Assembly (NCBI GenBank): GCA_944392255.1
Contig: CALXVY010000001.1
Location: 47,367 to 111,366, forward strand
Direction: 5' to 3'
From: an uncultured Alphaproteobacteria bacterium
GTDB taxonomy: Bacteria; Pseudomonadota; Alphaproteobacteria; RF32; CAG-239
DNA: 64,000 nt
Part shown: positions 5,730-61,136 of the stretch, one piece after another
Layout: every line of letters starts with the position of its first letter
Numbering within the stretch: position 1 is the first letter of the stretch
The notes under the pieces: generated by a model
Seen by the model: only the letters and a program-made list of their open reading frames with translations
The model's database searches: none
Told to the model about the DNA's origin: nothing
Position numbers and translations under genes: made by a program

Positions 5730-5965
5730 AAAAAAACCACCTTCGGAAAGGTGGCCGGAGAGTTAAGAAATCATACCCACAGATGTGACCGTTTTTGCCT
5801 TTAAATCAAAGATTCTGAACATACGCAAAAACCTCCCCGACCAATAAATAAAATCGGGGATATAATTATCTGCTCTATATTCATCTGAATATAAAGCAAA
5901 CTGACGATATATATCCAATACCGCTGTGAGTAGGGCTTCTTACGACCCCGAACCGTCTCCGGTTC
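5730..5965 (-). ncRNA. C4-antisense-like structured leader with a1b1-type target and overlapping terminator (copy A)
   Basis: Minus strand: gaaccg-GAGA-cggttc (5950-5965); a hairpin gggtcgtaagaagccc; b box tactcacag; closing stem tggtcggggag (5833-5843)/ctctccggcca (5752-5762) enclosing ctgtgggta and tttcttaa; terminator ccacctt-tccg-aaggtgg-T7. Confidence 0.7.
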
Positions 5966-5999
5966 TAATCAACAACACCATTGTTTATTGACTGCTTAC

Positions 6000-6028
6000 A
6001 ATGTAGAAGATTAAAAAAAAGATTTCAA
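6000..6028 (-). promoter_or_regulatory. Putative sigma70 promoter of leader A
   Basis: TTGAAA (6023-6028), 17 bp, TACATT (6000-6005) on minus strand. Confidence 0.5.
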
Positions 6029-6047
6029 TAAAATAAAATCAGGCTTT

Positions 6048-7322
6048 TTATTTTTTTAATTTTTTTTGCAAATAAAACAAAATCAAAAGCCCCGGAAGCG
6101 CCATTAATGTAGTTATAATAAAGAACATACTCCATCCCGTCACTTTGACCAGCGCGCCGGAAGTTGAAGCCAGTAAATCTCTTGCCAAAGACATAAAAGA
6201 AGAAAGAAGCGCATATTGCGTTGCCGTATACGCTGTATTACAAAGAGAAGAAATATAAGCCACAAACGCAGTTGTGCTCATTCCTCCGGCCAAATTATCG
6301 AGAGAAACTGTCCCCATTAGCAAATATAAATCATTACCGGCATGAGCCTGCCAAACATACATCAAAGTTGTCAAACCTTGAAGAATGCTTCCGAGATACA
6401 AACTTTTAACAATACCGAAACGATTAACAATCACTCCACCCAAAATTCCGCCGATAATTGTTGCCGCCATACCATAAAACTTAGTAACAAAAGCAATCTG
6501 CCCTTTAGTAAAGCCCATTGCATCATAAAAAGGCATAGTCATCGGCACCATATAGGCATCGCAAAGCTTATAAAACATTACAAAAAGCAAAACCACAAAC
6601 CAAGACGGACGGGTGATAAAATCAGCTATCGGACTTTTAATCGCCGTTTGATAAAAGTTTTTCAATCTTTGGATAAAACTACCTTCAAATTTAAGTTTCT
6701 GCTCTTTACTTTTCTGTGGTTCACGTGAACATAAAATCGTTACCACACCCAAAACAGCACCCAAAGCCATGCAAACATAAACTTCATTCCATGTTAAAAT
6801 GGTTGCTAAAAGTAAAGCCACAGCACCTGAGAAAACCGAACCTATACGATATCCCAAAATAAACATGGCCGTACCCGCCGCTTGGTCACGATTATCAAAA
6901 CTCTCCACACGATAAGCATCAAGAACAATATCTTGCGTAGCCGAAGCAAAAACGGTTAAAAGAGCCAAAAACATCATCAAATAAACCGATTGTGCCGGCT
7001 CGACCGAAGCCATACTTAAAATGGCTAAAAGCAAAAATATTTGCGAAAAAACGGCCCAACCGCGACGACGCCCGAGTTTTGAAAATAAAGGAATATTAAA
7101 TCTATCCACCAGAGGCGACCAGAGCCATTTGAAACTATACGGCGTTTTAACCAAAGAAAACAGGCCAATCATCTCAAGCCCGACGCCGGAATCTGTCAAC
7201 CACAGAGCCAAAGTCCCGCTTACAAGTAAAAACGGAAAACCGCTGGAAAAACCCAAGCCAATCATTGTCAGCATGCGCCAATCAAAATAAACAGCTAAAG
7301 AATTTTTCCAATTTTGAATCAT
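6048..7322 (-). CDS. ampG: AmpG family muropeptide MFS transporter
   Basis: LGFSSGFP, FKWLWSPLVDR, GRRRGW, SATQDIVLDAYR, TATQYALLSS; start taken at MIQNW (7322). Confidence 0.92.
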   Translation of the reverse strand: MIQNWKNSLAVYFDWRMLTMIGLGFSSGFPFLLVSGTLALWLTDSGVGLEMIGLFSLVKTPYSFKWLWSPLVDRFNIPLFSKLGRRRGWAVFSQIFLLLAILSMASVEPAQSVYLMMFLALLTVFASATQDIVLDAYRVESFDNRDQAAGTAMFILGYRIGSVFSGAVALLLATILTWNEVYVCMALGAVLGVVTILCSREPQKSKEQKLKFEGSFIQRLKNFYQTAIKSPIADFITRPSWFVVLLFVMFYKLCDAYMVPMTMPFYDAMGFTKGQIAFVTKFYGMAATIIGGILGGVIVNRFGIVKSLYLGSILQGLTTLMYVWQAHAGNDLYLLMGTVSLDNLAGGMSTTAFVAYISSLCNTAYTATQYALLSSFMSLARDLLASTSGALVKVTGWSMFFIITTLMALPGLLILFYLQKKLKK

Positions 7323-7370
7323 ATTAACTACCTCTAAACTCAAACATAACATTAAGATGTTAAATAAATC

Positions 7371-7401
7371 ATAATGGCCGATTATAAAAATCGGCCATTA
7401 T
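7371..7401. terminator. Hairpin downstream of secB
   Basis: ataatggccgatt-ataaa-aatcggccattat inverted repeat. Confidence 0.6.
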
Positions 7402-7419
7402 AAAAACACTGTATTTAAA

Positions 7420-7887
7420 CTAATTTTTTTGTTGTGCTGCGTGTTTTTTAGCTTGGAACAATGCAGCAAAATCAATCGGGTTCAACATAAACGGTGGCAA
7501 ACCGGCCTCTGTTAAAGAGGTTGTAATAACTTGACGTGCAAAAGGAAACAAGAGTCTTGGAATTTCAATCATCAAAACAGGCTCAATATGTTCTTGCGGA
7601 ATATTAAGCTGAACGACAGCCGAATAAGTTAATTCAATAATAAAAAACTTTTTATCTTCCGCATCACCATTAATGGTAAAAACCAAATCCACATTAAAAT
7701 AATTTTCTTCCAAAGGGCGAGCATTAACATCGACATTAACATTCACATCAGGATTTTTCTTAATTTCTTTAAAAATTTCCGGAGCATAAGGAATTTCTAA
7801 AGAAAAATCTTTAATATATTGATTATTTATCACAATAGCCGGCAATTGTTGTTTGTTTTCATTTTGCGGCTGATTATCTTGTTGCAT
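7420..7887 (-). CDS. secB: Protein-export chaperone SecB
   Basis: QYIKDFSLEIP, PRLLFPFAR, LNPIDFAALF. Confidence 0.96.
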   Translation of the reverse strand: MQQDNQPQNENKQQLPAIVINNQYIKDFSLEIPYAPEIFKEIKKNPDVNVNVDVNARPLEENYFNVDLVFTINGDAEDKKFFIIELTYSAVVQLNIPQEHIEPVLMIEIPRLLFPFARQVITTSLTEAGLPPFMLNPIDFAALFQAKKHAAQQKN

Positions 7888-8059
7888 AGTTCTCTCCTCA
7901 ACAACATTAAAACTGAAATTATATCAAAATTACACTCAAAAAATGCATAGGTCAATTTTATTTAGATATTTTTTTAATAAAGATAATTTATATTGCTAAG
8001 AACTGAAAAAATACTTATATATATAATATAAAAATATTTTATAAGGAAGAAAGCAAACC

Positions 8060-8710
8060 ATGGGACAATATTTAGATATTATCATTCTTTTATTAGTTGT
8101 TTTATTTATCTTTCAGCGTTTAAAATCTGTCTTAGGAACAAGACCACATGGTGAAAGCACAAAATTATCAGATGAAAGTGCTGCCAAGATTTTTGACATC
8201 ATCATGAAAGAAGCCGAAAAAAACAAACTTTCTGAAGAACAAAAAGACAATATCAAAGATATAAACTTAACCGAAGCCCAAAAAACCTTAGCCAAAATAC
8301 CAAACTTTGAAGAAAAAAACTTTTTAACCGGTGCTAAAAAAGCCTTTGAAATTATCTTAACCGCCTTTAGCAAAGCTGATTTAGAAACCTTAGAAATGTT
8401 GGTCAACAAAACCATTTATAACAAGTTTAAGGATATTATCGAAAAAAGAAAAGAAGAAGGCATAACTGCCGAGTTAGACTTCATTGGTTTTGACAAGGCA
8501 GAAATTGTTGATGCCAAAATCAGCAAAAACAATGTTGCAAAAATCACGGTAGAATTCATTTCTCAGCAAGTAAATTTGCTCAAAGATAAAGAAGAAAAAA
8601 TAATAGAAGGCGATGATCAATACATTCAAACCATCACAGATAAATGGACTTTTGAAAAAGCCATCACGTCAACCAACCCCAATTGGATACTTGTTTCAAC
8701 AAAGAAATAA
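8060..8710 (+). CDS. Tim44/TimA family adaptor protein
   Basis: RLKSVLGTR, FLTGAKKAFEII, DKWTFEK...NPNW; conserved secB/timA/mltA/smr synteny. Confidence 0.9.
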   Translation: MGQYLDIIILLLVVLFIFQRLKSVLGTRPHGESTKLSDESAAKIFDIIMKEAEKNKLSEEQKDNIKDINLTEAQKTLAKIPNFEEKNFLTGAKKAFEIILTAFSKADLETLEMLVNKTIYNKFKDIIEKRKEEGITAELDFIGFDKAEIVDAKISKNNVAKITVEFISQQVNLLKDKEEKIIEGDDQYIQTITDKWTFEKAITSTNPNWILVSTKK

Positions 8711-8714
8711 AAAT

Positions 8715-9866
8715 ATGAAAAAAATTGCTTATATATTCGGACTATGCTTCATTTTAATTTCTTGTGGAGAAGAAACATCCACACCAACAAGCATGGAAGA
8801 TTTAAATTTGAAAAAAAGCAATTATTCAGATTTAAGCAATTGGAAAAAAGATGATATACAAGACGCCATAAAAGCGTTCAAAAAATCTTGTCAAAAAATA
8901 AAAGATAATAAAAACGAATATATTGATAAAAAAGCCGCTATAAAAATTTCTACCAAAGACTATCAAAAGCTTTGTCGCCAAATAACTGAAATTCGTCCTA
9001 CCAAATATAAAGAATTCATAGAACAAAACTTCACTCCCTATTTGGTTGAATATAAAGGTTCTTCTGAAGGAAAATTCACCTCTTATTATGAGGCCGAACT
9101 TCACGCTTCTTATCATAAATCAGATAAATATAAATATCCTGTTTACGGTCGCCCTTATGATATGATAGAACTTAACTTACAAGATTTTGACAAAAGCCTT
9201 CCCAACAAAAGGTTAGTTGGTCGCATCAAAGGCAATACTTTTATCCCTTATTATACCAGAGCCGAAATCCATGATAAGCCATTAAATGCTCCAATTATTT
9301 TGTGGGGAGATAATGAAGTTGATATTTATGTCATGCAAATTCAAGGTTCTGCCGTTGCCAAAATGGAAGACGGCTCATATATCCGCATTGGCTATACAGA
9401 TAACAATGGTCAAGAATTCAAAGGTATAGGCAGTATATTATTAGAAGAAAAACTCATCAAACCCGGACAAGCTTCCATGGGCAAAATAAAAAAATGGCTC
9501 AAAGAAAATCCGGATAAAGCTATTGAACCAATGAACAAAAACAAACGTTATGTCTTTCATCGTTTAGTTAATGCCGATGGACCAATCGGAGCTCAAGGTG
9601 TTTCATTAACCTCTGGCAGAAGCTTAGCTGTTGACCGCACATATATTCCTTTAGGTGCTTTATTATGGTTAGAAACAACCGGTCCTGATAAAGAAAACAT
9701 CAACAAACTAGTCGTTGCTCAAGATATCGGCGGAGCCATTAAAGGAGCTGTTCGAGGAGATTATTTCTGGGGCAGCGGTGGAGATGAAATTTTAGAAAAA
9801 GCCGGAAGAATGCATGCCAAAGGCAAATATTATATACTTATACCCAACTCAACTGAGGTAAAATAA
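8715..9866 (+). CDS. mltA: Membrane-bound lytic murein transglycosylase A
   Basis: Lipobox LISC, FTSYYE, MQIQGS, SLAVD, AQDIGGAIKGAVRGDYFWG; start moved to ATG at 8715. Confidence 0.93.
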   Translation: MKKIAYIFGLCFILISCGEETSTPTSMEDLNLKKSNYSDLSNWKKDDIQDAIKAFKKSCQKIKDNKNEYIDKKAAIKISTKDYQKLCRQITEIRPTKYKEFIEQNFTPYLVEYKGSSEGKFTSYYEAELHASYHKSDKYKYPVYGRPYDMIELNLQDFDKSLPNKRLVGRIKGNTFIPYYTRAEIHDKPLNAPIILWGDNEVDIYVMQIQGSAVAKMEDGSYIRIGYTDNNGQEFKGIGSILLEEKLIKPGQASMGKIKKWLKENPDKAIEPMNKNKRYVFHRLVNADGPIGAQGVSLTSGRSLAVDRTYIPLGALLWLETTGPDKENINKLVVAQDIGGAIKGAVRGDYFWGSGGDEILEKAGRMHAKGKYYILIPNSTEVK

Positions 9867-9867
9867 A

Positions 9868-10377
9868 ATGGTAACAAAAGCAGACAAAATGGTTTTCAGA
9901 GCCTTAAAAACCGCCGTAGAAAAAGACCAACTTCGTTTATACATGGACTATGGCAAAGTCAACCGCCCCGGTTCACCGATATATAATCCTTGGGAATGTC
10001 TGTTACCAATACTTATTCCTGTGCTCATAGGATTAATGCTGATAATTTTTGTCGGCGTCATTTTTGGCTTATTATTCATTGTTGCCATGATAATGGTTTA
10101 TAGCACATATTTTAAGAAAAAACTCTATCACAAAGTTATAGAAAGAACTAAAGCTTATCTTATTTCATCTTTTGACAATTGTGAAAATTTATGGAAATTC
10201 GGAGGCATTGTCTTAGTTAATGCAGAAAATAAAAAACTCGGCTGTGTTGCTCCCGAAGGAGATTGGAAAGAATTTGTCATATTAAATTTTTCTGATTATA
10301 TGTTAGAAAAAAAACCGGAAGAAACAAAATCAGAAGACAAAAAAGCAGATGAAGAAAAACCAACCGAAAATAAGTGA
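9868..10377 (+). CDS. Hypothetical membrane protein
   Basis: Two hydrophobic helices, GAGG RBS, embedded in the mltA-smr operon. Confidence 0.75.
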   Translation: MVTKADKMVFRALKTAVEKDQLRLYMDYGKVNRPGSPIYNPWECLLPILIPVLIGLMLIIFVGVIFGLLFIVAMIMVYSTYFKKKLYHKVIERTKAYLISSFDNCENLWKFGGIVLVNAENKKLGCVAPEGDWKEFVILNFSDYMLEKKPEETKSEDKKADEEKPTENK

Positions 10378-10891
10378 AGAAGACTTAAATCTTTGGCAAG
10401 AAACCACCAAAGACATACAAGCTTTGCCACAAATAGAAGAAATTGAACGCCCAACAAAAGAATTACCGCCCATACGCAATAGCATAGATAATTCTACGGT
10501 TTATCAAGGCAATAAATTAACAGATTTAGCCATCGGACAAATTGCCGACTTGGATAGGAATACCGCCACAAAATTCAAGCGTGGTGAATTTAAAATCGAA
10601 AGAAGATTAGACCTACATGGCTATACCGAAGATGAAGCTTGGAATGCCGTAACAAACTTTGTCAAAAATGCTTACATAGACAATTTGCGTTGCATATTAA
10701 TTGTCACCGGCAAAGGTCGCCCTCACCCCGAAGATGAAGACTTTATGCCTCGCCGTGGAATTTTAAAAGAAAAAGTGCCGCAATGGCTCAATTCAAGAGA
10801 ACTAAGACCTTTAATTTTGAGTATCAGCTATTCACAGATTAAAGATGGTGGAGAAGGCGCTTTATACGTCCTTCTCAGAAGAAAAAGATAA
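10349..10891 (+). CDS. Smr/MutS2 domain protein
   Basis: RLDLHG, LIVTGKG, GGEGALYVLLR. Confidence 0.93.
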   Translation: MKKNQPKISEEDLNLWQETTKDIQALPQIEEIERPTKELPPIRNSIDNSTVYQGNKLTDLAIGQIADLDRNTATKFKRGEFKIERRLDLHGYTEDEAWNAVTNFVKNAYIDNLRCILIVTGKGRPHPEDEDFMPRRGILKEKVPQWLNSRELRPLILSISYSQIKDGGEGALYVLLRRKR

Positions 10892-11608
10892 CTATTGCTT
10901 GTTTTCAGCTTCCGGCTCTGCGAGCCAAATAGCTCCTTTTATTTTGTTTTGTAAAAATTCATTATGAATATTAATTTCTTCTTCAGAAAGAGGAAAATGG
11001 CGAACTTCTCTAACTTTTCCTTCTGCTCCGAATTGAACCTCTGCTGTTTGCTGAGTTGCTTTTTTCTTTTCATCAAACATCATGGCCGGTTCTTGACCGC
11101 CAATCAATTGCAGATAAACCTCAGCTAAGAGCTCAGCATCAAGCAGAGCACCGTGTTTGGTACGATTGGAGTTATCAATATTAAAACGCTTACAAAGTGC
11201 ATCCAAATTAACGCGCGCACCGGGAAACATATTACGGGCAATTTCCAAGGTATCAATAACCTTATCCCATGTAAACTCACGTTTATTTAAAGCTTTTTGC
11301 TCAAAGTTACAAAAAGTGATATCAAATTTAGCATTATGAGCTACCAAAATGCCATCTTCTCCGACAAAATCGAGCCATTCATCAACAATTTGGTCAAATG
11401 TCGGAAAATCTTTCAAAAAGTCATAAGACAAACCATGAACTTTAAAAGCATCTTCGGGAACTTCTCTTTGCGGGTTAATATACTGATGATAGACTTTGCC
11501 GGTGGGAACATGGTTAATGAGCTCTACTGCACCGATTTCAACCAATCTATCTCCCTTATCAGCATCAAAACCGGTCGTTTCCGTATCAAAAACAATCTCT
11601 CTAACCAT
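10892..11608 (-). CDS. dnaQ: DNA polymerase III epsilon subunit
   Basis: DTETTG, VAHNAKFD, HGALLDAELLAEVY. Confidence 0.97.
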   Translation of the reverse strand: MVREIVFDTETTGFDADKGDRLVEIGAVELINHVPTGKVYHQYINPQREVPEDAFKVHGLSYDFLKDFPTFDQIVDEWLDFVGEDGILVAHNAKFDITFCNFEQKALNKREFTWDKVIDTLEIARNMFPGARVNLDALCKRFNIDNSNRTKHGALLDAELLAEVYLQLIGGQEPAMMFDEKKKATQQTAEVQFGAEGKVREVRHFPLSEEEINIHNEFLQNKIKGAIWLAEPEAENKQ

Positions 11609-12194
11609 AATTTTTTCCCTTCAAACCTTTAACAATTTCCAAAGCTGAAACTTTGAGCAAATTAAGCGGTACATCTGTTTCCACCACCCAATCTGCTTTT
11701 GCAACTTTTTCCTTTTGGCTCATTTGCTTACTAATGATTTTATCAACATGCTCTGCAGAAACCTTATCTCTTTGCATGACACGCTGTTTTTGCAACTCTT
11801 CATCAACATTAACGGCAATAACAAAATCACAATATTTATCCCAACCAAGTTCAAACAAAAGCGCGGCATCTAAAAACAAAATATCGTCTGTTTTAGCATT
11901 TTTACGAATAAGTGCTTTTAATTGTCTTTTTAAGAAGGGATGAATCAAACTCTCTAACTTTTGCAATTGTTGTTTATCATCAAAAACAAGCAAACGCAAT
12001 TTTCTTTTATCAAAAACCCCATTGTTTTGGGCTTGCGGAAAGTTTTGCAAAATTACTTTAATAAACTCCGGCTTAAAATAAAGTCTTCTCACCCAAGCAT
12101 CAGCATCAAAAACAGGATATCCGAGTTTTTTAAATATATTAGCCAAAGTAGTCTTTCCACACCCGATAGAACCGGTAATCGCCGCCAAAATCAT
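11601..12194 (-). CDS. coaE: Dephospho-CoA kinase
   Basis: ITGSIGCGKTT, DAD, LESLIHP; start moved to MILAAITG (12194). Confidence 0.93.
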   Translation of the reverse strand: MILAAITGSIGCGKTTLANIFKKLGYPVFDADAWVRRLYFKPEFIKVILQNFPQAQNNGVFDKRKLRLLVFDDKQQLQKLESLIHPFLKRQLKALIRKNAKTDDILFLDAALLFELGWDKYCDFVIAVNVDEELQKQRVMQRDKVSAEHVDKIISKQMSQKEKVAKADWVVETDVPLNLLKVSALEIVKGLKGKNYG

Positions 12195-12229
12195 AATCTG
12201 AGCCTTAACCATTTGATAAATAAAACAAA

Positions 12230-14037: not shown

Positions 14038-14044
14038 AAATTAT

Positions 14045-14070
14045 AAAAGCTCCTGAAAAGGAGCTTTTCT
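14045..14070. terminator. Bidirectional intrinsic terminator after rho
   Basis: aaaagctcct-gaaa-aggagctttt. Confidence 0.75.
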
Positions 14071-29812: not shown

Positions 29813-30055
29813 TTATAGGGCATCGAAAGAAAGGTCAATTTTCATATCAAAAGCACGGGCAATTTGGTTAAGGTTGCCAAAATTGATTTCGGCGAGCCCA
29901 AGTTCTAGTTTTTCAATATAAGCCGGGGGTACACCGGTTTGGTTGGCAAGCTCAGGTATCGTGATTTTGTGCAAACGCCGGAGGGCGGTCATTTGCTCGG
30001 CAAGGGCAAGTTTGGTTTGTTTGAGATTAATTCGGGCTTGTTTTTTGTTTAGCAT
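29813..30055 (-). CDS. XRE-family helix-turn-helix protein
   Basis: LRRLHKITIPELANQTGVPPAYIEKLELG...NLNQIARAF; AGGAG RBS. Confidence 0.85.
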   Translation of the reverse strand: MLNKKQARINLKQTKLALAEQMTALRRLHKITIPELANQTGVPPAYIEKLELGLAEINFGNLNQIARAFDMKIDLSFDAL

Positions 30056-30078
30056 ATTTCAACTCCTGTTTATAAAGG

Positions 30079-30134
30079 GACAACTTTTGCCGTCAAACAC
30101 GCTGTGTTTGTGGGGTCAAGCTGCCACCAGCTTG
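30079..30134. repeat. Nested palindromic (REP-like) sequence
   Basis: caaacac-gct-gtgtttg and caagct-gccacc-agcttg hairpins between leader B and the HTH start. Confidence 0.45.
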
Positions 30135-30136
30135 TT

Positions 30137-30303
30137 AAAACATACCGCCGAATGTTAAAAAACATCGGCGGTGGAGCTGAAAAACTGTATAGAGGCAGTC
30201 ACCCTTATTCGACCAATAAATTGGCTTATATCGGGCACTCCACCATAAAGTGGATTTCTCTATAATGATGTTTTTCAGACACCACAGGCTGTCTCCAACC
30301 TGC
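30137..30303 (-). ncRNA. C4-antisense-like structured leader with a1b1-type target and overlapping terminator (copy B)
   Basis: Minus strand: gcaggttg-GAGA-cagcctgt (30284-30303); a hairpin ggtgtctgaaaaacatc; b box tatagag; stem tggtggag (30238-30245)/ctccaccg (30169-30176) enclosing ctctata and gtttttcag; terminator-like accgccga...tcggcggt (30144-30172) then atgtttt. Confidence 0.72.
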
Positions 30304-30310: not shown

Positions 30311-30338
30311 ATTGTAGAGAAAAAGGGAAAAAAAGCAA
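30311..30338 (-). promoter_or_regulatory. Putative sigma70 promoter of leader B
   Basis: TTGCTT (30333-30338), 16 bp, TACAAT (30311-30316). Confidence 0.5.
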
Positions 30339-30369: not shown

Positions 30370-30426
30370 GCCAAGAATTATATTTGTTCTCGGCACGGAA
30401 TATACGCCAAGAATTATATTTGTTCT
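30370..30426. repeat. 21-bp perfect direct repeat, two copies
   Basis: gccaagaattatatttgttct at 30370-30390 and 30406-30426, 15-bp spacer. Confidence 0.9.
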
Positions 30427-30478
30427 AGCCCCAGTCAGCGCGGCAGTCTAACCGATGCGATCAAACGCGCCGTGTTCG

Positions 30479-33117: not shown

Positions 33118-33145
33118 GTTAATTTATCATTTCATCAAAAAAAGC

Positions 33146-33235
33146 GGTGGAGGACATATAGCCTTGATTAAAATCGTTACGGCTGCTTCCTTCCGGACCT
33201 GACCGGGTTGGCGACAAATCAACCCAACGTCCTCC
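33146..33235 (-). ncRNA. ffs: Small bacterial SRP RNA (4.5S)
   Basis: Core GGTCAGGTCCGGAAGGAAGCAGCC, terminal helix ggaggac/gtcctcc, usual position upstream of dnaX. Confidence 0.95.
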
Positions 33236-33302
33236 TTTGGGTAATATTGCCGAAAACGGAAGAGATTTCAAGCAATATTTATCTTTTCAGACAAGAATTT
33301 TT

Positions 33303-34769
33303 TTAATTACCAACCATAATGTTCATTTTTTGCAAGCTGCGGCGGATGCTGTCACGTTCTTCAGCTTCGTATAAATCTTGTTGGTTTGCCAAATTAAGCT
33401 GATGTCCGTAGATAAGAGATTCCGCCAATGTTTTATCTTTGCCGAAAATAAGTGGTGAGCGATAAGTTTCGGTTATGTTAATATTATCAGTATAAACATC
33501 AATATCATCGGCATCAAAACGTGTTGGAGCCTCATCTATAACCACATCTTCGGTCTTTTTCACTTCGACAATATCCATACTATGTTGGTTGCGTCCGTTT
33601 TCAAACAAGCGGAACATTCCGTTGATTCCGACATATCCATCAGGATTGGTAATAGTGGCTGTATAGTTATTTGCACCTTGTTTGGCAATGGCATTGGAAA
33701 GAGCCACGGCATCATATCCTAAAGCATAAAGAGCTTGGGGACGTTCACCGAAAACATAGGAATATTTATTTACAAAATAGTTGCTGTGACTACGAGAAAT
33801 GGCCGGATACCAACTTCCGATAAGAGTTGATTCGTTATTGAGTTTAGAGTTTTCCCATAGAGAAGTTCCCAAAAACTTAACATCTGGAGCAAATACGTCA
33901 TAATAACCAAACATGGCAACGGCAGATTTAAGTTTTGCGCCTTTTTCAGGAATAAGAACCATGTCAAAATCAATTTCACCTAAAGTATCATGAGTAGAAA
34001 CACGTTTCAACGCTTTGGCAGATTCTGCATCTCCGGCATCAGCTTTAGCTTTAAGAGATGCTTTAAGTTTTTCCATACGAGCATGACGTGTATTATAGTC
34101 GGTCATTTCTCTTAAGATATTAGAAAAATCGGAAGTATTGGGTGGATAAAAGGCAATGCGGGTAATGATGATGCTGTTTTTTTGAGCCGCTTTAACGGCA
34201 GCTTTGGCAACGGCGATTCCGGTAGCATTATCAGGAACCAAAAGAGCTAAACGAGAACGACCTTGCTTAACGGCATAAGAAATAATGCGGCAGACCTGCT
34301 CATCTACAAGCAGACCCAAGGTGTAGACACTGGGTTGTAACACATCTTCTGTGGTGGAAAAAGCAATGACGGGAATATTTCTGCGTGTTGTATCATCGGA
34401 AATGGCGCGTACGGAAGAACTTTTTAAAGGACCGATAATAACTTGCACGTTTTGGTTAATGGCGTTTTGTACGGCAGTACGAGCACCTTCGGGGGTGCTT
34501 TTAGTGTCGTAATATTGTAAAATGAGGTCAGGATTTTTAACATCATCAAGGGCGAGCATTGTTGCATTTTTCAAGCCGTTGCCATAGCGAGCGGCATCAC
34601 CGGTAAGAGGGAGCAAAACACCAACTCTGAAGCTAGATTTTTCAGAAAGATTTATTTCAGAAAAATCTGTGGAAGAAGCGTCAGCCCCGCCTAAATGATT
34701 AACATTAGATGAAGTTGAGCACGCAACGAGAGCCAAACCGAGAAATAATGCAGAAAATTGTTTTAACAC
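33303..34769 (-). CDS. Penicillin-binding protein activator (LpoA/LppC-like lipoprotein)
   Basis: Lipobox LVAC, VGVLLPLTG, IIGPL, ALGYDAV, GINGMFR; divergent from rsmI-yraN. Confidence 0.85.
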   Translation of the reverse strand: MLKQFSALFLGLALVACSTSSNVNHLGGADASSTDFSEINLSEKSSFRVGVLLPLTGDAARYGNGLKNATMLALDDVKNPDLILQYYDTKSTPEGARTAVQNAINQNVQVIIGPLKSSSVRAISDDTTRRNIPVIAFSTTEDVLQPSVYTLGLLVDEQVCRIISYAVKQGRSRLALLVPDNATGIAVAKAAVKAAQKNSIIITRIAFYPPNTSDFSNILREMTDYNTRHARMEKLKASLKAKADAGDAESAKALKRVSTHDTLGEIDFDMVLIPEKGAKLKSAVAMFGYYDVFAPDVKFLGTSLWENSKLNNESTLIGSWYPAISRSHSNYFVNKYSYVFGERPQALYALGYDAVALSNAIAKQGANNYTATITNPDGYVGINGMFRLFENGRNQHSMDIVEVKKTEDVVIDEAPTRFDADDIDVYTDNINITETYRSPLIFGKDKTLAESLIYGHQLNLANQQDLYEAEERDSIRRSLQKMNIMVGN

Positions 34770-47288: not shown

Positions 47289-49091
47289 CTAATTTAGTTT
47301 AGCCGCTGTTATCATGATTTTTTGCCAAATTTCGGCGGGCAAATTGGAGCCGGAAACATTTTTCATCGGAGAATTGTCGTCATTTCCGAGCCAAACCGCA
47401 GCAATCAGCTCATCGGTAAAGCCCACAAACCAAGCATCGCGGTTGTCTTGGCTGGTACCGGTTTTTCCGGCAGCAAAACCTTTGATTCGCGCACGTTTTC
47501 CGGTGCCAGACGAGATGACTTCTTGCAACATATAAGTCAGTTGCTCCACATCACGTTTATCAAGAATTTGATTCTCATCATCAATGTTTCTCTGATAGAG
47601 TTGATATCCGTCTTTGGTATAAATTTCCTTAATGGCATATGGAATAACCGCATAACCGCCGTTAGCAAGCGTGGTATAAGCGGTGGCCATATCCATGACT
47701 TTCACTTCTGAGGTGCCAAGCGCAATTGCCGGAGAATTTTCAATTTCGGTGCTAATACCCATACGATGCGCATTTTTGATAATATCGCTGCGATTAAGCA
47801 TTTCCGAAAGGTGAATGGTTGCAAGGTTGTAAGAATGAGCCAAAGCTTGCGTTAAGGTTACTTCACCGTGATATTTACGGTCGGCATTTTCGGGCTTCCA
47901 TTTGCCGATAGAAAGCGGAGAGTCCATAATTTTATCTTCTGCCGAAAAGCCTTCTTGCAAAGCCGTGAGATAAACAAAAGTCTTAAAAGATGACCCCGGT
48001 TGGCGCAAAGCCTGTGTAGCACGGTTGAATTGACTTTTGGCATAATCCACACCGCCAACCATGGCCTTGATACCACCGCTCTTGTCCATAATTACAATCG
48101 CCCCTTGGTGCACGTTACGAGAAGAGGCATATTTGTTGATGGTGCTTTCCAAAATGTCAGATGCCGCTTGCTGCAAGTCTTGGTCAAGCGTGGTTAAAAC
48201 ATAAATATCATTGGTGCGTTCGCCGATATAAGAGTTAACGTCATTATAAACCCAATCGGCAAAATGCATGGCATCTTTCACATTATATTTCTTTTCCGGA
48301 CCGAGGCGCATTTTAAGTGCGTTGTCCGCTTGCATTTGCGTGATTTTGTCATTATCAACCATGTTGTTGAGAACCACTTTAGCACGCTCTATTGCTCTTT
48401 CTTCCGAGGCAATCGGGTTATAGCGCGACGGTGCTTTGAGCATACCGGCAATTACGGCAGCTTCCTTGAGGTTAAGGTCGCGAGAAGATTTTTGAAAATA
48501 TTTCTGGCTTGCTGCCTCAATACCGTAAGTGCCGGCCCCTAAATAAACGCGGTTCAGATAAAGTGCCAAAATTTGGTCTTTGGTAAATTTGGATTCGAGC
48601 CAAAAAGCAAGCAACAATTCTTGGGTTTTGCGCTTGATATTTTTGTTTGGTGTCAGGAATAAGTTTTTAGCCACTTGTTGCGTGATGGTGCTTCCGCCTT
48701 GTGCGTAACGTCCAAGAAACATATTGGTTAGCATGGCACGCGTGAAGGAAATGACATCAAAGCCAAAGTGCGAATAAAAACGCCTGTCTTCTGTGGAAAG
48801 AATAGCATCAATCACGTAAGGAGGAAGCTCGTCAACGGTAATCACTTCCGAATAAACACTGCCGAAAGTGGTGACTTCATTGCCGTTTTCGGCAGCAATG
48901 GTTGTGGAAGGTTGGCGGGTGCGATTAACAGCTTCTTCAATATCCGGAAGAGTGATGATGCAATAGCCGATATAGAGTAGAAAAGTTATCACCAAGCCGG
49001 CAAAAATTTTTAATTTAATATGCCGATTCTTAACCTTCTGTTTTGACTCTCTTTTTTTTCTTTTTGTTGTCTTTTTCTTAGCTTTTGCCAC
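47289..49091 (-). CDS. Class A penicillin-binding protein (PBP1A family)
   Basis: EDRRFYSHFG, QGGSTITQQ, RK..E, YLN, GSSFK (SxxK), SYN, KTGT. Confidence 0.95.
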   Translation of the reverse strand: MAKAKKKTTKRKKRESKQKVKNRHIKLKIFAGLVITFLLYIGYCIITLPDIEEAVNRTRQPSTTIAAENGNEVTTFGSVYSEVITVDELPPYVIDAILSTEDRRFYSHFGFDVISFTRAMLTNMFLGRYAQGGSTITQQVAKNLFLTPNKNIKRKTQELLLAFWLESKFTKDQILALYLNRVYLGAGTYGIEAASQKYFQKSSRDLNLKEAAVIAGMLKAPSRYNPIASEERAIERAKVVLNNMVDNDKITQMQADNALKMRLGPEKKYNVKDAMHFADWVYNDVNSYIGERTNDIYVLTTLDQDLQQAASDILESTINKYASSRNVHQGAIVIMDKSGGIKAMVGGVDYAKSQFNRATQALRQPGSSFKTFVYLTALQEGFSAEDKIMDSPLSIGKWKPENADRKYHGEVTLTQALAHSYNLATIHLSEMLNRSDIIKNAHRMGISTEIENSPAIALGTSEVKVMDMATAYTTLANGGYAVIPYAIKEIYTKDGYQLYQRNIDDENQILDKRDVEQLTYMLQEVISSGTGKRARIKGFAAGKTGTSQDNRDAWFVGFTDELIAAVWLGNDDNSPMKNVSGSNLPAEIWQKIMITAAKLN

Positions 49092-54752: not shown

Positions 54753-54901
54753 AATTAAACATTAAAAGCATCATACCACAGAATAGATTCGCTGTCTAGA
54801 ATAAATTTTGTCTAAAATAAGCACAAAAACATAAAATATAAGCTTTTTTGCGTTGATATCTTTGCTTTTTTGTTTGGTGAATTCAATATTTGGGTATATA
54901 G

Positions 54902-57394
<2,493 letters not shown>

Positions 57395-57410
57395 TCTGTC
57401 GAAAAAAAAC

Positions 57411-57447
57411 AAACCCCCGCAAGTTTGAAAAAACTTCGGGGGTTTTT
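57411..57447. terminator. Terminator after gyrB
   Basis: aaacccccg...aagttt-gaaa-aaactt-cgggggttttt. Confidence 0.7.
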
Positions 57448-57451
57448 AGTG

Positions 57452-58006
57452 TTATTGAATGCTTGCGTAAAAATAAATATTACCATAGTTTCCTAAAAAA
57501 TGAGCAATATTTGTTTCTCCATCTAAACCTACATCTCCTGAATGGGTATACCAATATTGCCCACAATGCCCACCATCGTTTTTTAAAAGCAGATATTTAT
57601 CTTGATTAAAGCAAGAGGGATATCCAAAAACAGCAAGCTTATCAGAAAGACACAGCAAATCATGATAATTAGCTACAAAAACGTTCAAGGCATATTCATT
57701 CCATGGCTTAGCATTTACGTGAATGTTCTTGCCAAAATTGAAAACCACTTCCGTTGTCACCGGCATAGGTAGGTCTTTCAAGTTGTCAAAAGTCAAAGGC
57801 TGAACATAAAAAATGGTTTTATCGACCACAATTCCGACTAACTCTCCCATATTAGGCGTAATTTTTTTAGAAAAGAATTCTTTACCATCTTTTCTGAAAA
57901 TCAAATCAAAAGGAGAATCTCCGGAGATTTTTTCCAAATATTCTTTGACTTGAGCTACCGTTGGTTGACAAGCATTAAAAACACGAAAAATTTCTTCTTT
58001 TTCCAT
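57452..58006 (-). CDS. Orphan hypothetical protein
   Basis: 184-aa ORF with TTGACA-17-TAATCT promoter and AT-only leader. Confidence 0.65.
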   Translation of the reverse strand: MEKEEIFRVFNACQPTVAQVKEYLEKISGDSPFDLIFRKDGKEFFSKKITPNMGELVGIVVDKTIFYVQPLTFDNLKDLPMPVTTEVVFNFGKNIHVNAKPWNEYALNVFVANYHDLLCLSDKLAVFGYPSCFNQDKYLLLKNDGGHCGQYWYTHSGDVGLDGETNIAHFLGNYGNIYFYASIQ

Positions 58007-58108
58007 AAAATAATTTTTTATAAAAATTAAACATATATTTAGCTGATTAGGGCATAAGATTAAGTAGATAATATAAATTTGTCAATCAAATTTGCCGGAG
58101 GGAGAAAG

Positions 58109-58606
58109 ATGAAATTTGCCATTATTTATTATAGTTTAAGCGGCCACACCAAAGAGATGGGAGAGGTTATTGCCGAAGGGATAAGAAAACAAGGCGGTGA
58201 GGCCCGTCTTTTTTCCATTACCGAAGAAATGGACGCCGAATATATTAATGCTTGCGATGGCGTTATCTTTGGCACACCGACTTATCTGGCAAGTACATGT
58301 TGGCAAATCAAAAAATGGTTGGAAGAGGACAGCCGCCATCTGAAATTGGCAGGTAAGTTAGCCGGTGTTTATGCCACCGCGCACTATGCCCAAGGCGGTG
58401 GAGATATTGCCATTATGACCATTATCGGACATCTGTTGGTCAAAGGTATGTTAGTTTATTCCGGCGGCGGAGCTTGGGGACAACCCTATATTCACTTAGG
58501 ACCTGTGGCTTTGGATGCGGTTGAAGGACATTATGAAAAAAGCAAAGAGATGTTTGAAATCTTTGGTGAGAGAATGGCGCAAAAAGCTAAAGATTTATTT
58601 GCTTAA
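58109..58606 (+). CDS. Flavodoxin/WrbA-like FMN-binding protein
   Basis: IIYYSLSGHT, IFGTPTY, LAGKLAG; GGAGG RBS before ATG at 58109. Confidence 0.88.
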   Translation: MKFAIIYYSLSGHTKEMGEVIAEGIRKQGGEARLFSITEEMDAEYINACDGVIFGTPTYLASTCWQIKKWLEEDSRHLKLAGKLAGVYATAHYAQGGGDIAIMTIIGHLLVKGMLVYSGGGAWGQPYIHLGPVALDAVEGHYEKSKEMFEIFGERMAQKAKDLFA

Positions 58607-58677
58607 AGCCTGATTTTGGTTGACTTGTAAAAGTGCTTCGTTCTAAACTGAACAAAAAAATTTTTAAGGTAAAAACA

Positions 58678-59793
58678 ATGTCTTTAAAGTTCAAACTTGC
58701 TTTTATTTCCGCCTTGTTGTGCAGTTCTGCGGCTTTTGCCGGAGAATGGGAAACCGGCATGGAAGGAAGTGCTACCGGTTTATATGGTTATACCGAAGCA
58801 TCGGATAGATTTTCTGAGCAAAACGGCCACAATCACGGTGTGGGCGATGCCAAACTGAGCGCCTATGCCAAATATTTGTTTGGGGCAGATTGGGAAGCAG
58901 GGATTTATGCCGATTTAATGCTTGGTGTTGACCACGAGTTGGAAGACTATAACCAAGGCAAATGGGGTGAAGAAGTTTATGGCATTGTTGATAGCTCTTA
59001 TGGTCGCTTGATGATTGGTCAAACTTGGAACGTTGCCGCGCAATTTCATACCGGCGCACCGGATGCCGGACCATTGGGCATAGAAAACAGTGATATTGTT
59101 GACTTTATCTTCAATCCCAACTGGCAAAGAAAAGGCAGCAACGCCCGCTTTGCCACCTTGAACACCACTTATATCAATACTGATGGTGTGGCGCCAAAAA
59201 TAAGCTATATCACGCCGGAATATTATGGGACAATGTTAGGTTTTACCTATGTTCCGGAAACCTACAACCGCCGCGGTTTGGTGAGTAAGTCGGCAGACTA
59301 TGAAGACAAAGGCGGCTATATTGTCAGTTTGTATAACTATATAGATTTTGACATTTTTAATTTAACCACCACTTTGGGCTATGCTGATTTTGTTGATAAT
59401 GACCAAGAATATTCTGCCAGCATGAGCTTGTCACACGGCAACTGGACATTTGGTGGCGGTTGGCGTATGACCGAAGCCGATGATAAAAACCCGATTTCCG
59501 CCAAAGCAGATATGCCGGAATTCTTTGATGGATATCGTGAGGGCTATGCTTGGAATGTGGGTTTGGGCTATGAAATCGGACCTTATAAAACCTCTTTGTC
59601 ATACTTTGAATCTCATGCCAAAGAAAGCGATAATGAAGATAGAATTTTGATGTTCTCCAACCGTTATCAAGTCAATAAAAATCTGGATGTATATTTGAGC
59701 GCGGCTAAGGTAGACTTCCGAGGTCAAAACCGCGAGGTTAGTCAGAACAATAAGGGCTATGCGGTCGTGAGCGGTTTGAGTATGAATTTTTAG
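58678..59793 (+). CDS. Outer membrane porin
   Basis: Signal peptide AFA, YGRLMIG, KISYITP, amphipathic strands, C-terminal Phe. Confidence 0.85.
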   Translation: MSLKFKLAFISALLCSSAAFAGEWETGMEGSATGLYGYTEASDRFSEQNGHNHGVGDAKLSAYAKYLFGADWEAGIYADLMLGVDHELEDYNQGKWGEEVYGIVDSSYGRLMIGQTWNVAAQFHTGAPDAGPLGIENSDIVDFIFNPNWQRKGSNARFATLNTTYINTDGVAPKISYITPEYYGTMLGFTYVPETYNRRGLVSKSADYEDKGGYIVSLYNYIDFDIFNLTTTLGYADFVDNDQEYSASMSLSHGNWTFGGGWRMTEADDKNPISAKADMPEFFDGYREGYAWNVGLGYEIGPYKTSLSYFESHAKESDNEDRILMFSNRYQVNKNLDVYLSAAKVDFRGQNREVSQNNKGYAVVSGLSMNF

Positions 59794-59802
59794 GAGAAGT
59801 AA

Positions 59803-60432
59803 ATGCCTAACATTTTGCTATTATCGAACAATGAAGATTTTGCTTTAGATTTAAGCGAGCAAATCACTTTATATGCGCACGATTTTACGGTTTTGCCGCA
59901 AGATGATGAAAACAGCTTAATAGATATGATAATTTTGGATGAAAGAGCTCAAGACTTAAAAACTTTGCGTGCGCATCACCCCAATACGCCGATTATTTTG
60001 CTACAAAAAGAAGGCGATGATTCGGTAGAAAGCTCGGTTTTGAATCAAGTTGTTTTCAAACCGCTGTCTTTGGAAAGTTTGTTAAACCAAATTCAAGCCG
60101 GTATCAATTTGGTAGATAATTCCGAAGCCGGATATTTAAACTTTAATCTCTATGAGTTGCACCCATTGCAAAAAGAAATTTATAATGAACGCAACGGCGA
60201 AACCATAAAACTGACGGAAAAAGAAGTAGCAATCATCAAATTTTTATATAAAAACAAAGATAAAATTGTTTCTAAAAATGATTTGTTGCAAGAAGTTTGG
60301 GGTTATAGTCCCGATGTCAGCACCCATACAATAGAAACCCATATTTATCGCCTGCGCCAAAAGGTTGAACACGAAGATACTTCCGCGCAACTGATTGTCA
60401 CCGAAGACGGCGGATACAAGCTGGTATTATAA
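59803..60432 (+). CDS. OmpR-family response regulator with degenerate receiver
   Basis: LTEKE, LLQEVWGY, THTIETHIYRLRQK, GGY winged helix. Confidence 0.88.
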   Translation: MPNILLLSNNEDFALDLSEQITLYAHDFTVLPQDDENSLIDMIILDERAQDLKTLRAHHPNTPIILLQKEGDDSVESSVLNQVVFKPLSLESLLNQIQAGINLVDNSEAGYLNFNLYELHPLQKEIYNERNGETIKLTEKEVAIIKFLYKNKDKIVSKNDLLQEVWGYSPDVSTHTIETHIYRLRQKVEHEDTSAQLIVTEDGGYKLVL

Positions 60433-60457
60433 AAAAGGCGGAGAAAACTCCGCCTTA
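60432..60457. terminator. Hairpin terminator between regulator and lipoprotein
   Basis: aaggcggag-aaaa-ctccgcctt preceded by an A tract. Confidence 0.7.
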
Positions 60458-60460
60458 ATT

Positions 60461-60877
60461 TTATTTTTCAGGATATAAATTCAAATTAACCTCTTCATCC
60501 AAATAATACATATCGCCGGTCAAAGGGTCTATAATCAGATAACCGATTAACCCGCCGATGAGCAAGTTTCCGGCATAATACCAACCGCTTACGTGCCAAT
60601 CAATCACGGTTGTTTGGGTTTTGTAGCCGTCTTTGGAGGCAATCACAGTATATTTTTGCGGGTTGAAATAACCGCCGGCCGCAGTTTTGAGATTGATTGT
60701 GGTCGGAGTTTGTCCTTCAAAAACAGTTTGTCCGTGCCGGTCGAGGATTTTGATATCCACTTTTTCCAAATTAGCTTTGATTGGAATGGTTTGCGAGTTC
60801 TCACGCATAACCGTAGCGCAAGAAGCAAGAGTTGCGACAATGATGCCGCAGAAAAATAAATAAAACAGTTTTTTCAT
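60461..60877 (-). CDS. Small lipoprotein (PEGA-like domain, C-terminal Gly-rich hydrophobic helix)
   Basis: MKKLFYLFFCGIIVATLASC lipobox; GQTP, SKDGY, GNLLIGGLIG..IDPLTG; AAGGA RBS. The ORF-track start at 61003 lies inside the RNA leader. Confidence 0.82.
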   Translation of the reverse strand: MKKLFYLFFCGIIVATLASCATVMRENSQTIPIKANLEKVDIKILDRHGQTVFEGQTPTTINLKTAAGGYFNPQKYTVIASKDGYKTQTTVIDWHVSGWYYAGNLLIGGLIGYLIIDPLTGDMYYLDEEVNLNLYPEK

Positions 60878-60901
60878 CAGAACATCCTTTGTTGACAAGA
60901 T

Positions 60902-61093
60902 AAAACAAAACCCACCGAAAAAAGGTGGGCGGATGTTCAGAAACCGTTGAATGTTACGGCTCGGCCTATTCGGCATAGCCTTATTTAGCCGACATCCGTC
61001 CATAACGAAGTCGGCATAAATATTTGAAGTCGCTATGCTAAACGACTACATTCACAAGGGTTTCTGAAGCCCTAACGCTCATCTCTAAGCGTC
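60902..61093 (-). ncRNA. C4-antisense-like structured leader with a1b1-type target and overlapping terminator (copy C)
   Basis: Minus strand: acgctta-GAGA-tgagcgt (61075-61092); a hairpin agggcttcagaaaccct; b box tgaatgt; stem tggacggatgt (60992-61002)/acatccgccca (60926-60936) enclosing acattca and ggtttctgaa; terminator cccacc-N7-ggtggg-ttttgtttt; TATAAT at 61102-61107. Confidence 0.75.
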
Positions 61094-61136
61094 AACAAAA
61101 GATTATAAGTTCTGATGAATTTTGTAAAGATAAAAA

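Follow-up and report, generated by a model that had tools for sequence, protein, structure and literature searches.

A large family of phage-C4-like RNA leaders upstream of surface-structure and other genes in uncultured gut Alphaproteobacteria

Three leaders in one stretch of DNA

We analyzed a 64,000-nucleotide (nt) stretch of DNA, hereafter the window, from an uncultured alphaproteobacterium of the CAG-239 lineage (GenBank assembly GCA_944392255.1, contig CALXVY010000001.1, positions 47,367 to 111,366 of the forward strand). Three 5' leaders of approximately 200–300 nt are located within it, all on the minus strand, and each precedes a single gene, encoding a capsule synthesis protein, a small helix-turn-helix protein and a lipoprotein, respectively. 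A preliminary description of the window had likened these leaders to the C4 antisense RNA of phage P1. The three leaders belong to a family of phage-C4-like RNA switches that is large and so far undescribed.

The window copies, numbered by position, represent three subfamilies (copy 1, subfamily C; copy 2, subfamily B; copy 3, subfamily A), and a single order of parts is common to all subfamilies. A promoter is followed by a 5' hairpin (H0), a second hairpin (H1) carrying a box, a1, in its loop, and a single-stranded box, b1. Next come one or more spacer hairpins, a strand (Alt) that is complementary to the 3' half of the stem P1 5' arm and to the stem P2 5' arm, a Y-shaped RNA with an RCC tail, a terminator and, 10–60 nt further, the ribosome-binding site. 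The Y-shaped RNA consists of a closing stem (P1), a stem with an internal hairpin (P2), a stem whose loop holds a box, b' (P3), and a single-stranded junction, a', located 5' of the P1 3' arm. All leaders share a U at position -1 and GG at +1 of the Y-shaped unit as well as the RCC tail after its stem. Units are 75–98 nt in length, and folding each in isolation yields the Y shape every time (z-scores -3.26, -2.69 and -3.17 for copies 1, 2 and 3). The boxes named in the preliminary description all lie at the minus-strand places it gave them, and the 5' hairpin with a GAGA loop is present in all three leaders.

Copy 1 starts with the promoter-like sequence TTGAAA-17-TACATT (6000..6028; all window features given here and below are on the minus strand), which passes a simple sigma-70 scan. 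H0 (5950..5965) has the sequence GAACCG-GAGA-CGGTTC, and H1 (5933..5949) presents the a1 box TAAGAA (5937-5942). The b1 box TACTCACAG (5924..5932) forms nine base pairs with b', one of them G-U. The Alt strand TCCCCGA (5854..5860) has its partner, TCGGGGA (5834-5840), in the P1 5' arm. The Y-shaped unit, which is both C4-like and sRNA-Xcc1-like (see below), extends over 5745..5842 and comprises the P1 5' arm (5833-5842), b' in the P3 loop (5774-5782), a' (5764-5769) and the P1 3' arm (5753-5762), followed by ACC. An intrinsic terminator with its T tract was found by a terminator scan (5725..5756). The ribosome-binding region, with an a2-like box GGAAGAATC (5706..5714), precedes a start codon at 5703-5705, and the cargo gene (4521..5705) encodes a 394-amino-acid (aa) Capsule_synth protein (PF05159).

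In copy 2 the promoter-like sequence is TTGCTT-16-TACAAT (30311..30338), which the simple scan missed and which is conserved in eight subfamily-B copies. H0 with its GAGA loop (30284..30303) is followed by H1 (30267..30283), containing the a1 box CTGAAAAAC (30270-30278), by the b1 box TATAGAG (30258..30264) and by the Alt strand TCCAC (30250..30254; partner GTGGA, 30239-30243). The Y-shaped unit (30162..30244) consists of the P1 5' arm (30238-30244), b' CTCTATA (30188-30194), a' GTTTTTCAG (30177-30185) and the P1 3' arm (30170-30176), with GCC as its tail. A terminator hairpin with a bulged stem and a T tract (30137..30169) escaped the terminator scan. The ribosome-binding site, with the a2 box GGAGTTGAAA (30057..30066), can form ten base pairs with TTTCAGCTCC, one of them G-U, and precedes the start codon (30053-30055) of a gene (29813..30055) for an 80-aa HTH_3 protein, one of eight paralogs.

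Two repeats accompany copy 2. A 62-nt repeat element (30075..30136) lies between the terminator and the ribosome-binding site, as it does in five of the eight subfamily-B copies; it contains two short palindromes and ends in ...GACGGCAAAAGTTG. It occurs elsewhere in this genome (G000) on contigs C25 and C36 and at C1:139419-139467, with partial copies on C26, C20, C10 and C19, and its 3' half is also found upstream of some subfamily-B promoters, so that it brackets the RNA module. Candidate identities are a REP-like element, an attC-like element or a recombination scar. Immediately before the copy 2 promoter (window ~30372-30430), the direct repeat GAACAAATATAATTCTTGGC occurs twice, ~38 nt apart; the exact 20-mer has three occurrences in the genome, and near-identical variants precede the leader at C1:139500.

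Copy 3 carries the promoter-like sequence TTTACA-15-TATAAT (61102..61128), missed by the scan because of its 15-nt spacer. Sigma-70-like promoters had been claimed for all three leaders; in copies 2 and 3 the claim rests on promoter-like sites read from the sequence. H0 with a GAGA loop (61075..61092), H1 (61058..61072) with the a1 box TTCAGAAACC (61059-61068) and the b1 box TGAATGT (61048..61054) are followed by a spacer hairpin H2 (61028..61047), whose stem covaries in the family, and by the Alt strand GCCGAC (61010..61015; partner GTCGGC, 60988-60993). The Y-shaped unit (60919..61001) comprises the P1 5' arm (60993-61001), b' ACATTCA (60948-60954), a' GGTTTCTGAA (60936-60945), the P1 3' arm (60927-60935) and ACC. 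Downstream are an intrinsic terminator (60901..60930), the ribosome-binding site with the a2 box GGATGTTC (60880..60887), complementary to GAACATCC, and the start codon (60875-60877) of a gene (60461..60877) for a 138-aa lipoprotein without a Pfam family, the N-terminus of which ends in ...LASC.

The terminator had been described as overlapping the closing stem in every leader. The overlap amounts to 3 nt in copy 3, where CCC of the P1 3' arm is common to both, and 2 nt in copy 1, but only about 1 nt in copy 2. An attenuator in which stem P1 drives the choice between termination and antitermination, as the common core of the family, was therefore rejected, since the terminator of copy 2 forms beside the full P1 stem.

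Distribution of the family

The three copies originally described are real, but the genome, of 1.64 Mb in 43 contigs with 36.8% G+C, holds 15 leaders according to profile searches built from aligned leaders: six of subfamily A, eight of B and one of C, dispersed singly across the genome. Hundreds more are present in relatives. Of 24 other genomes of this bacterial family, 23 contain matches resembling the Rfam family sRNA-Xcc1 (RF02221; E<=0.5), with at most 15 per genome. A DNA search with the copy 1 leader (subfamily C) was positive in 86 of 121 genomes of the family, among them G000, often with several matches each. The exact core pattern of subfamily A occurs in at least 118 stretches of a species-genome collection, about ten of which are chance matches in high-G+C genomes, and the remaining ~110 carry the full leader. 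According to their titles, the records that contain full leaders stem from uncultured gut Alphaproteobacteria or 'Azospirillum' of humans and herbivores. The subfamily-A statistics presented below (117 unique leaders, a 119-sequence alignment and 108 folds) were obtained from among the matches listed, and counts across relatives are not independent.

The leaders had been regarded as dispersed, inserted cassettes. This view suits subfamily B, which alone resembles a duplicated cassette, with a unit of ~550 bp that carries the helix-turn-helix cargo and ends at the stop codon. It does not suit copy 3, which is not a recent insertion, because the orthologous xthA-lipoprotein locus of a congener (L020) holds the same leader and the b box TGAATGT is common to five genomes of the genus.

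Covariation of a1 with a' and of the structural stems

The a and b pairings had been seen to co-vary between the three copies, and this is borne out across the family. In the 119-sequence alignment, the three central base pairs between a1 and a' show 36–60 double changes each, with two unpaired cells each, and none of 500 shuffles reached the observed values. Pair 83-300 is CG in 79, AU in 23 and GC in 13 sequences; pair 84-299 is GC in 62 and AU in 53; and pair 86-298 is AU in 56, GC in 43, UA in nine and CG in eight. At least 14 types of a box are present in the family. When the leader L020 is compared with the window (60936-61068), a change of type (CAGAAA to CGAAAA) is seen in a1 as well as in a', and b1, b' and the ribosome-binding site are unchanged.

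The H2 spacer stem shows double changes in five of five pairs. The Alt helix, expected from the earlier observation that an upstream segment can sequester the P1 5' arm, is paired in 99.5% of cells of the subfamily-A alignment, with three unpaired cells and 87 one-sided changes, all of them wobble-compatible; double changes are invisible here because the search pattern fixed one side. For the same reason stem P1 is invariant in this alignment, since the pattern fixed P1. Between subfamilies, however, Alt and P1 change together (GCCGAC/GTCGGC, TCCAC/GTGGA and TCCCCGA/TCGGGGA). RNAalifold, applied to 13 diverse cores including one canonical sRNA-Xcc1 (one row, L013, was trimmed at the wrong end), recovered P1, P2 and P3 with compensated double changes in 11 of 14 pairs.

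Private addresses formed by b1 and b'

Within a subfamily, b1 and the P3 loop containing b' are almost the only variable parts, and each copy's own pair still matches. Identity in the b regions is approximately 0.4–0.5, while the rest of the leader is 82–87% identical. Among the 117 unique subfamily-A leaders there are 101 distinct b boxes, and the longest Watson-Crick match of a b' loop to the sequence upstream of it in the same leader is most often 9 nt (range 4–14), compared to a mode of 4–5 nt for non-cognate comparisons (n=2302).

The addresses also differ within single genomes. The eight subfamily-B copies of the present genome have eight different b pairs despite nearly identical 79–82-aa helix-turn-helix products, and in five genomes with three to eight copies each, all 27 of 27 b boxes are distinct. 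Non-cognate complementarity of at least 7 nt was observed in only 8 of 134 ordered pairs in these five genomes, which corresponds to the background rate. At orthologous loci the b pair may be retained, changed with compensation or replaced: the loci L013 and L014, which represent one locus in two congeners, differ by a compensated change in the b pair, and L029 has a different b box at the same locus. One b pair, TATATCTACA, is identical in the leader on contig C29 of the present genome, which has a 96-aa cargo, and in the leader L193, which has an autotransporter cargo.

Complementarity of a' to the ribosome-binding site

In all three subfamilies the ribosome-binding site is complementary to a' and the start of the P1 3' arm. 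The site is GGATGTTN... in subfamily A, the complement of the end of a' and the first five bases of the P1 3' arm. In subfamily B it is the copy 2 sequence complementary to the stretch given above, and in subfamily C it has the form GGAG..(a-like)..AATC. Two single cases show three-way changes, namely B_C2 (CTAAACAAC / GTTGTTTAG / GGAGCTAAA) and L026 (TTAGAAAACC / GGTTTTCTAA / GGATGTTA).

Duplexes between a' and its own ribosome-binding window average -10.25 kcal/mol in subfamily A, against -9.18 kcal/mol for permuted pairs (110 unique pairs; 0 of 5000 permutations as low). The corresponding values in subfamily C, for which some start codons were taken at in-frame TTG, are -10.09 and -8.96 kcal/mol (27 unique pairs; 3 of 5000). 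The earlier view that no downstream a2b2 target exists thus holds for one half only. An a2-like box over the ribosome-binding site tracks a', but b2 was not found: in subfamily A, b' has no excess complementarity downstream of its own leader (5.03 versus 4.67 nt).

Predicted folds and duplexes

All energies given here are predicted with a nearest-neighbour model, which leaves out pseudoknots and kinetics. Each of the three window leaders has as its minimum-energy fold a closed form in which a1 pairs with a' and b1 with b' in cis, the P1 5' arm is held by the Alt hairpin, and the terminator is formed. The cis pairing of a1b1 with b'a' is nested rather than pseudoknotted once P1 and P3 are open. 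Forcing P1 to form costs 14.6 kcal/mol in copy 3, 7.4 in copy 2 and 9.6 in copy 1.

To mimic a bound trans RNA, a1 and b1 were blocked in folding. Among 108 subfamily-A leaders, the free minimum-energy folds contain b1:b' in 107, a1:a' in 96, the Alt hairpin in 107, P1 in none, and a ribosome-binding site paired with a' or the P1 3' arm in 28; on blocking, these counts become 0, 0, 101, 3 and 67, respectively. In the window, blocking raises the number of ribosome-binding-site bases paired with a' or the P1 3' arm from 0 to 10 of 10 in copy 2 and from 0 to 8 of 9 in copy 1.

Trans duplexes were modelled between the 3' half of each RNA and each a1-b1 segment. Predicted energies are -32.4 kcal/mol for cognate and -21.3 kcal/mol for non-cognate combinations in subfamily A. 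In subfamily B they are -18.8 and -12.2 kcal/mol, and the cognate combination is strictly best in seven of eight rows.

Cargo genes and genomic context

Eight of the 15 cargo genes in the genome encode small HTH_3 proteins, and three encode lipoproteins, one of which has a PEGA domain. The others encode the Capsule_synth protein, an Mrr-like protein, a GT29 sialyltransferase-like protein and a 96-aa protein that is secreted. Across the family the cargo consists mostly of surface proteins, including autotransporters, Opa-like porins, BspA repeats, pilins and capsule glycosyltransferases. Sorted by crude motifs, the 111 distinct subfamily-A cargo proteins comprise 40 with a lipobox, 16 that are pilin-like, 28 with another signal or membrane N-terminus, and 27 others. 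A Pfam run on 104 of these 111 found 37 families, among them BspA-type LRR (12 proteins), PEGA (6), Autotransporter (5), OMP beta-barrel (4), Chlamydial PMP repeats, Opacity porin and PilS (3 each), Glycosyltransferase family 2 (2), and Bundlin, Stealth and GT29 (1 each).

The eight paralogous HTH_3 genes of the genome (79–82 aa, some one residue apart) are located on contigs C1 (two genes), C7, C9, C21, C25, C36 and C2. Each is behind a leader with its own b address, so that one small regulator is present in eight separately addressed copies. On contig C9 an ORF (open reading frame) for a 324-aa Xer-type tyrosine recombinase (G000:C9:32848-33645) ends ~140 nt upstream of the subfamily-B leader (33784-33991), which may be a coincidence.

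The absence of a phage context noted at first persists on a wider scale. A search of 2.9 million viral contigs with the subfamily-A pattern yielded one match only, a chance match without the leader anatomy. In a phage collection the single match is a fecal contig labelled 'UNVERIFIED: Bacteriophage sp.' (L193, MT836653.1:575-3440), which carries a true subfamily-A leader and a gene for an 886-aa autotransporter. A phage origin was rejected on these grounds, the viral-contig match being due to chance and the lone phage record being an unverified contig with an autotransporter. No integron integrase was found in the genome, where the best match scores 71 bits against a cut-off of 265 bits; attC sites were not formally searched.

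Relationship to known RNAs

In a scan of the three leaders against all of Rfam, the families C4 (RF01695), c4-a1b1 (RF03163) and isrK gave no match at E<=10. The best and only consistent match is to sRNA-Xcc1 (sRNA, small RNA), which all three leaders match over the full model (positions 1-87) with 16.6, 22.6 and 37.7 bits for copies 1, 2 and 3, compared to a cut-off of 53 bits. As a positive control, phage P1 scores 68.8 bits with C4 (gathering threshold 45) and 51 bits with c4-a1b1 (gathering threshold 46.7), the two models belonging to clan CL00128. By Rfam score the leaders are therefore not members of C4, c4-a1b1 or sRNA-Xcc1. At E<=10 the sRNA-Xcc1 model finds 11 copies in the genome, none of which reaches the cut-off, and the cut-off is exceeded in only 1 of 41 genomes (G039, from another bacterial family). 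At gathering thresholds, no Rfam 15 family passes on the leaders, and the only match in the window is the small bacterial signal recognition particle RNA (RF00169, 65.8 bits; 33143-33238), located between a dnaX-like ORF and ybaB-recR.

The likeness to the phage P1 C4 system was confirmed part by part in the annotated phage P1 record and with RF03163 and RF01695. In that record a1 is located at 48255-48261, b1 at 48269-48276, c4 at 48343-48419, a2 at 48423-48429, b2 at 48452-48459 and the icd start at 48470; on phage P1, RF03163 models two hairpins, a1 being in the loop of the second. The leaders described here have the same order of parts, with a 5' hairpin, an a1 loop, b1 immediately after it, a spacer hairpin and a Y-shaped RNA. 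As in C4, a closing stem surrounds two hairpins, the second of which has b' in its loop, a' is in the junction before the 3' arm of the closing stem, and upstream a1 (in a hairpin loop) and b1 are complementary to a' and b'. They also share U|GG at the 5' end, an ACC-type tail and an a-type box downstream, before the regulated gene.

There are also clear differences. The closing stem is 17 bp in phage P1 versus 7–10 bp here. The phage P1 stem forms in the minimum-energy fold of the precursor, with no closed form, whereas here Alt and the cis pairing of a1b1 with b'a' outcompete the stem. An intrinsic terminator follows the unit in our leaders, and the phage immunity context, with icd/ant or an antirepressor gene downstream, is lacking: the cargo consists of surface and small helix-turn-helix proteins, and there are many orthogonal copies per genome. 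For phage P1, C4 is described as processed by RNase P at its 5' end, at a GGW motif, with b' lying over the ribosome-binding site and a' conferring specificity (PMC5320573). Because a' and the stem arm, not b', match the ribosome-binding site here and no b2 was found, the roles of a' and b' appear swapped relative to that account. For phages P1 and P7, RNase P processing is reported, as is heteroimmunity that arises through a few changed bases (PMC5320573; PMC11143913).

With sRNA-Xcc1 the leaders share a GAAUAA motif and the RCC tail, and in a canonical member from G039, a1- and b1-like complements of a' and b' can likewise be read off the upstream sequence. They differ in scoring below the cut-off and in their cargo. 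The integron-cassette context of sRNA-Xcc1 was likewise not found, as judged from the integrase search and from the singly dispersed copies. In Xanthomonas integron cassettes sRNA-Xcc1 lies upstream of, and co-oriented with, one gene, symE (bioRxiv 10.1101/2025.06.18.660453), and in APSE phage it lies upstream of an ORF6N gene (bioRxiv 10.1101/2020.03.17.996009). In the available parts of the literature consulted, the a1b1, Alt or a2 logic of our leaders is not described for sRNA-Xcc1. The canonical copies in G039 form three tandem ~994-bp units (L012, G039:C1:749239-752323), each with one sRNA-Xcc1 (55.8–57.9 bits), a 104-aa ORF and a 136–147-aa ORF that weakly resembles Rha (22 bits, below the cut-off).

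The CI RNA of the satellite phage P4 (seqA - cI/seqB - seqC) is processed from the leader of the operon that it controls. It pairs with boxes up- and downstream on nascent transcripts of the same locus, which leads to a self-sustaining repressed state, and it acts by premature transcription termination. In the family described here the terminator generally does not compete with the RNA fold.

The nearest precedent is the multi-copy family of Group 1 C4-like sRNAs in Acinetobacter baumannii, a large family in one genome whose members have different specificity loops and are cut out of longer transcripts at a GGW motif (PMC5320573). However, those sRNAs match the Rfam C4 motif and are described in the available parts of that article as sRNA genes with antisense partners, not as surface-gene leaders with private a1b1 addresses. 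In the literature on sRNA-Xcc1, c4-a1b1 and C4 antisense RNA, main texts being the scope, we did not find this leader family described, nor any control of surface-protein genes by C4-like RNAs.

Proposed mechanism and alternative explanations

Four pairings emerge from sequence, covariation and folding: a1-b1 with b'-a' of the same transcript; Alt with the P1 5' arm; P1, closing a Y-shaped RNA with b' exposed in a loop and a' in a junction; and a' together with the P1 3' arm with the ribosome-binding site. Our best reading, to which we give a probability of roughly 55%, is that these mutually exclusive helices gate translation and that a processed RNA exerts address-specific control in trans. 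Each leader would be transcribed from its own promoter and would regulate the single gene behind it. The nascent leader would fold into the closed form, with a1b1 on b'a' in cis, the Alt hairpin and the terminator, and most transcripts would end at the terminator. In transcripts that read through, masking of a' would keep the ribosome-binding site free, an effect that is clearest in subfamilies B and C. A cut upstream of P1, probably made by RNase P as in phage P1 C4 in view of the U at -1, the G at +1 and the RCC tail after the stem, would set the Y-shaped RNA free. The a'b' of the free RNA would then bind a1b1 of new transcripts from the same locus only, since b is a private address. The cis a' would thereby be unmasked and, with the P1 3' arm, would close the ribosome-binding site and turn translation off. 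The outcome would be a gene-specific, RNA-only autoregulation of surface-structure genes, built like the immunity circuits of phage P1 C4 and P4 CI but serving chromosomal genes. Such a mechanism accounts for the existence of a1b1, for a b that is private without a downstream copy, for the conservation of Alt and for the match of the ribosome-binding site to a'.

Several observations weigh against this proposal. The a2 effect is modest, at ~1 kcal/mol, the permutation tests overstate its significance because the sequences are related, and part of the signal is the generic complementarity of any CUCC or AUCC stem arm to a Shine-Dalgarno sequence. The ribosome-binding site of copy 3 is already paired with the P1 3' arm at 8 of 9 bases in the free fold, so that an ON state is not evident for subfamily A. 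Because P1 is nearly absent from full-length subfamily-A folds, whether free or blocked, the Y-shaped RNA would need prior cleavage or a kinetic path. One row of the subfamily-A duplex matrix (C15) is barely specific, with -29.5 kcal/mol for the cognate RNA versus -29.3 and -28.9 for others. RNA evidence consists of contigs from three RNA-library runs of one study, which cover the leader without ends, strand or level; one 522-nt contig spans the leader and the ORF start, with DNA carry-over possible.

A structural switch that acts purely in cis, sensing temperature, responding to a protein or ligand, or serving as a signal for processing or stability, would need no trans RNA, and b1 and b' would vary because their complementarity matters and their sequence does not. 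The closed form is the minimum-energy fold of the three window leaders and, by its b1:b' helix, of 107 of 108 subfamily-A leaders, full-length folds do not form P1, and the RNA-library contigs, without ends or strand, reveal no separate small RNA, all as such a switch would predict. We nevertheless think it unlikely, though it deserves to be kept in mind. The Y-shaped fold would be superfluous in a cis-only switch, yet it is conserved across subfamilies with compensated pairs. U|GG, the RCC tail and the order of parts are those of phage P1 C4, annotated as a processed, trans-acting RNA (PMC5320573), and the b boxes are randomized in leaders that are otherwise highly similar while complementarity remains perfect. 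That all b boxes within a genome differ is likewise not predicted by a cis helix. The units could alternatively be independent sRNA genes with their own terminators and with trans targets elsewhere, a1b1 being a decoy or folding aid and the downstream gene being transcribed separately. A terminator does follow each unit, sRNA-Xcc1 is described as trans-acting in the title of Chen et al. 2011 (as cited in bioRxiv 10.1101/2020.03.17.996009), and many A. baumannii C4-like sRNAs are proposed to act on bacterial targets (PMC5320573). This explanation seems to us improbable given that the unit is co-oriented with the next gene in all 15 copies and in all family members inspected, that it ends 10–60 nt before the ribosome-binding site and leaves no room for a promoter, and that a2 tracks a'. 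In addition, the b' loop lacks enriched complementarity downstream, as described above, targets elsewhere not having been searched.

The chance that the leaders are decayed remnants of phage immunity or of integron cassettes, now functionless, is very slight. Their nearest Rfam family is known from integron cassettes and APSE phage, the canonical sRNA-Xcc1 copies in G039 precede a weakly Rha-like ORF, and subfamily B resembles a duplicated cassette. Decay, which the preliminary description had itself named as an alternative, is contradicted by strong purifying selection on all parts, with compensated changes across more than 100 genomes, and by cargo genes that are intact and coherent in function. 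Neither an integron integrase in the genome nor a true subfamily-A match in the viral contigs was found.

A stronger version of the proposed trans-acting mechanism would make each leader an RNA-only, heritable two-state switch with a private address; we regard this as distinctly unlikely. In its ON state all transcripts would be closed, with a'b' masked, no substrate for processing and a free ribosome-binding site. In its OFF state free Y-shaped RNA on nascent a1b1 would block closure and expose the cis anti-Shine-Dalgarno sequence, and the bound transcripts would become more free RNA, a self-templating positive loop like that of P4 immunity. If this were true, 15 or more orthogonal addresses would give rise to combinatorial mixtures of autotransporters, porins, pilins, lipoproteins and capsule enzymes on the surface of a clonal population, resembling phase variation with no change in DNA.

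Implications

The family provides more than 100 natural, mutually orthogonal RNA address pairs on one scaffold, in which b1 and b' are approximately 100 nt apart and yet change together, and is thus a test bed for the evolution of antisense specificity. It also ties sRNA-Xcc1, whose mechanism is left open in the available parts of the papers cited, to the C4 design, and it reveals an annotation gap, as the leaders fall under the threshold of every Rfam 15 family. The kinds of cargo, including sialyl- and capsule transferases, are those that other host-adapted bacteria vary by DNA-based phase variation. RNA-based control of such genes in abundant, uncultured gut bacteria with small genomes would be a new route to surface heterogeneity.

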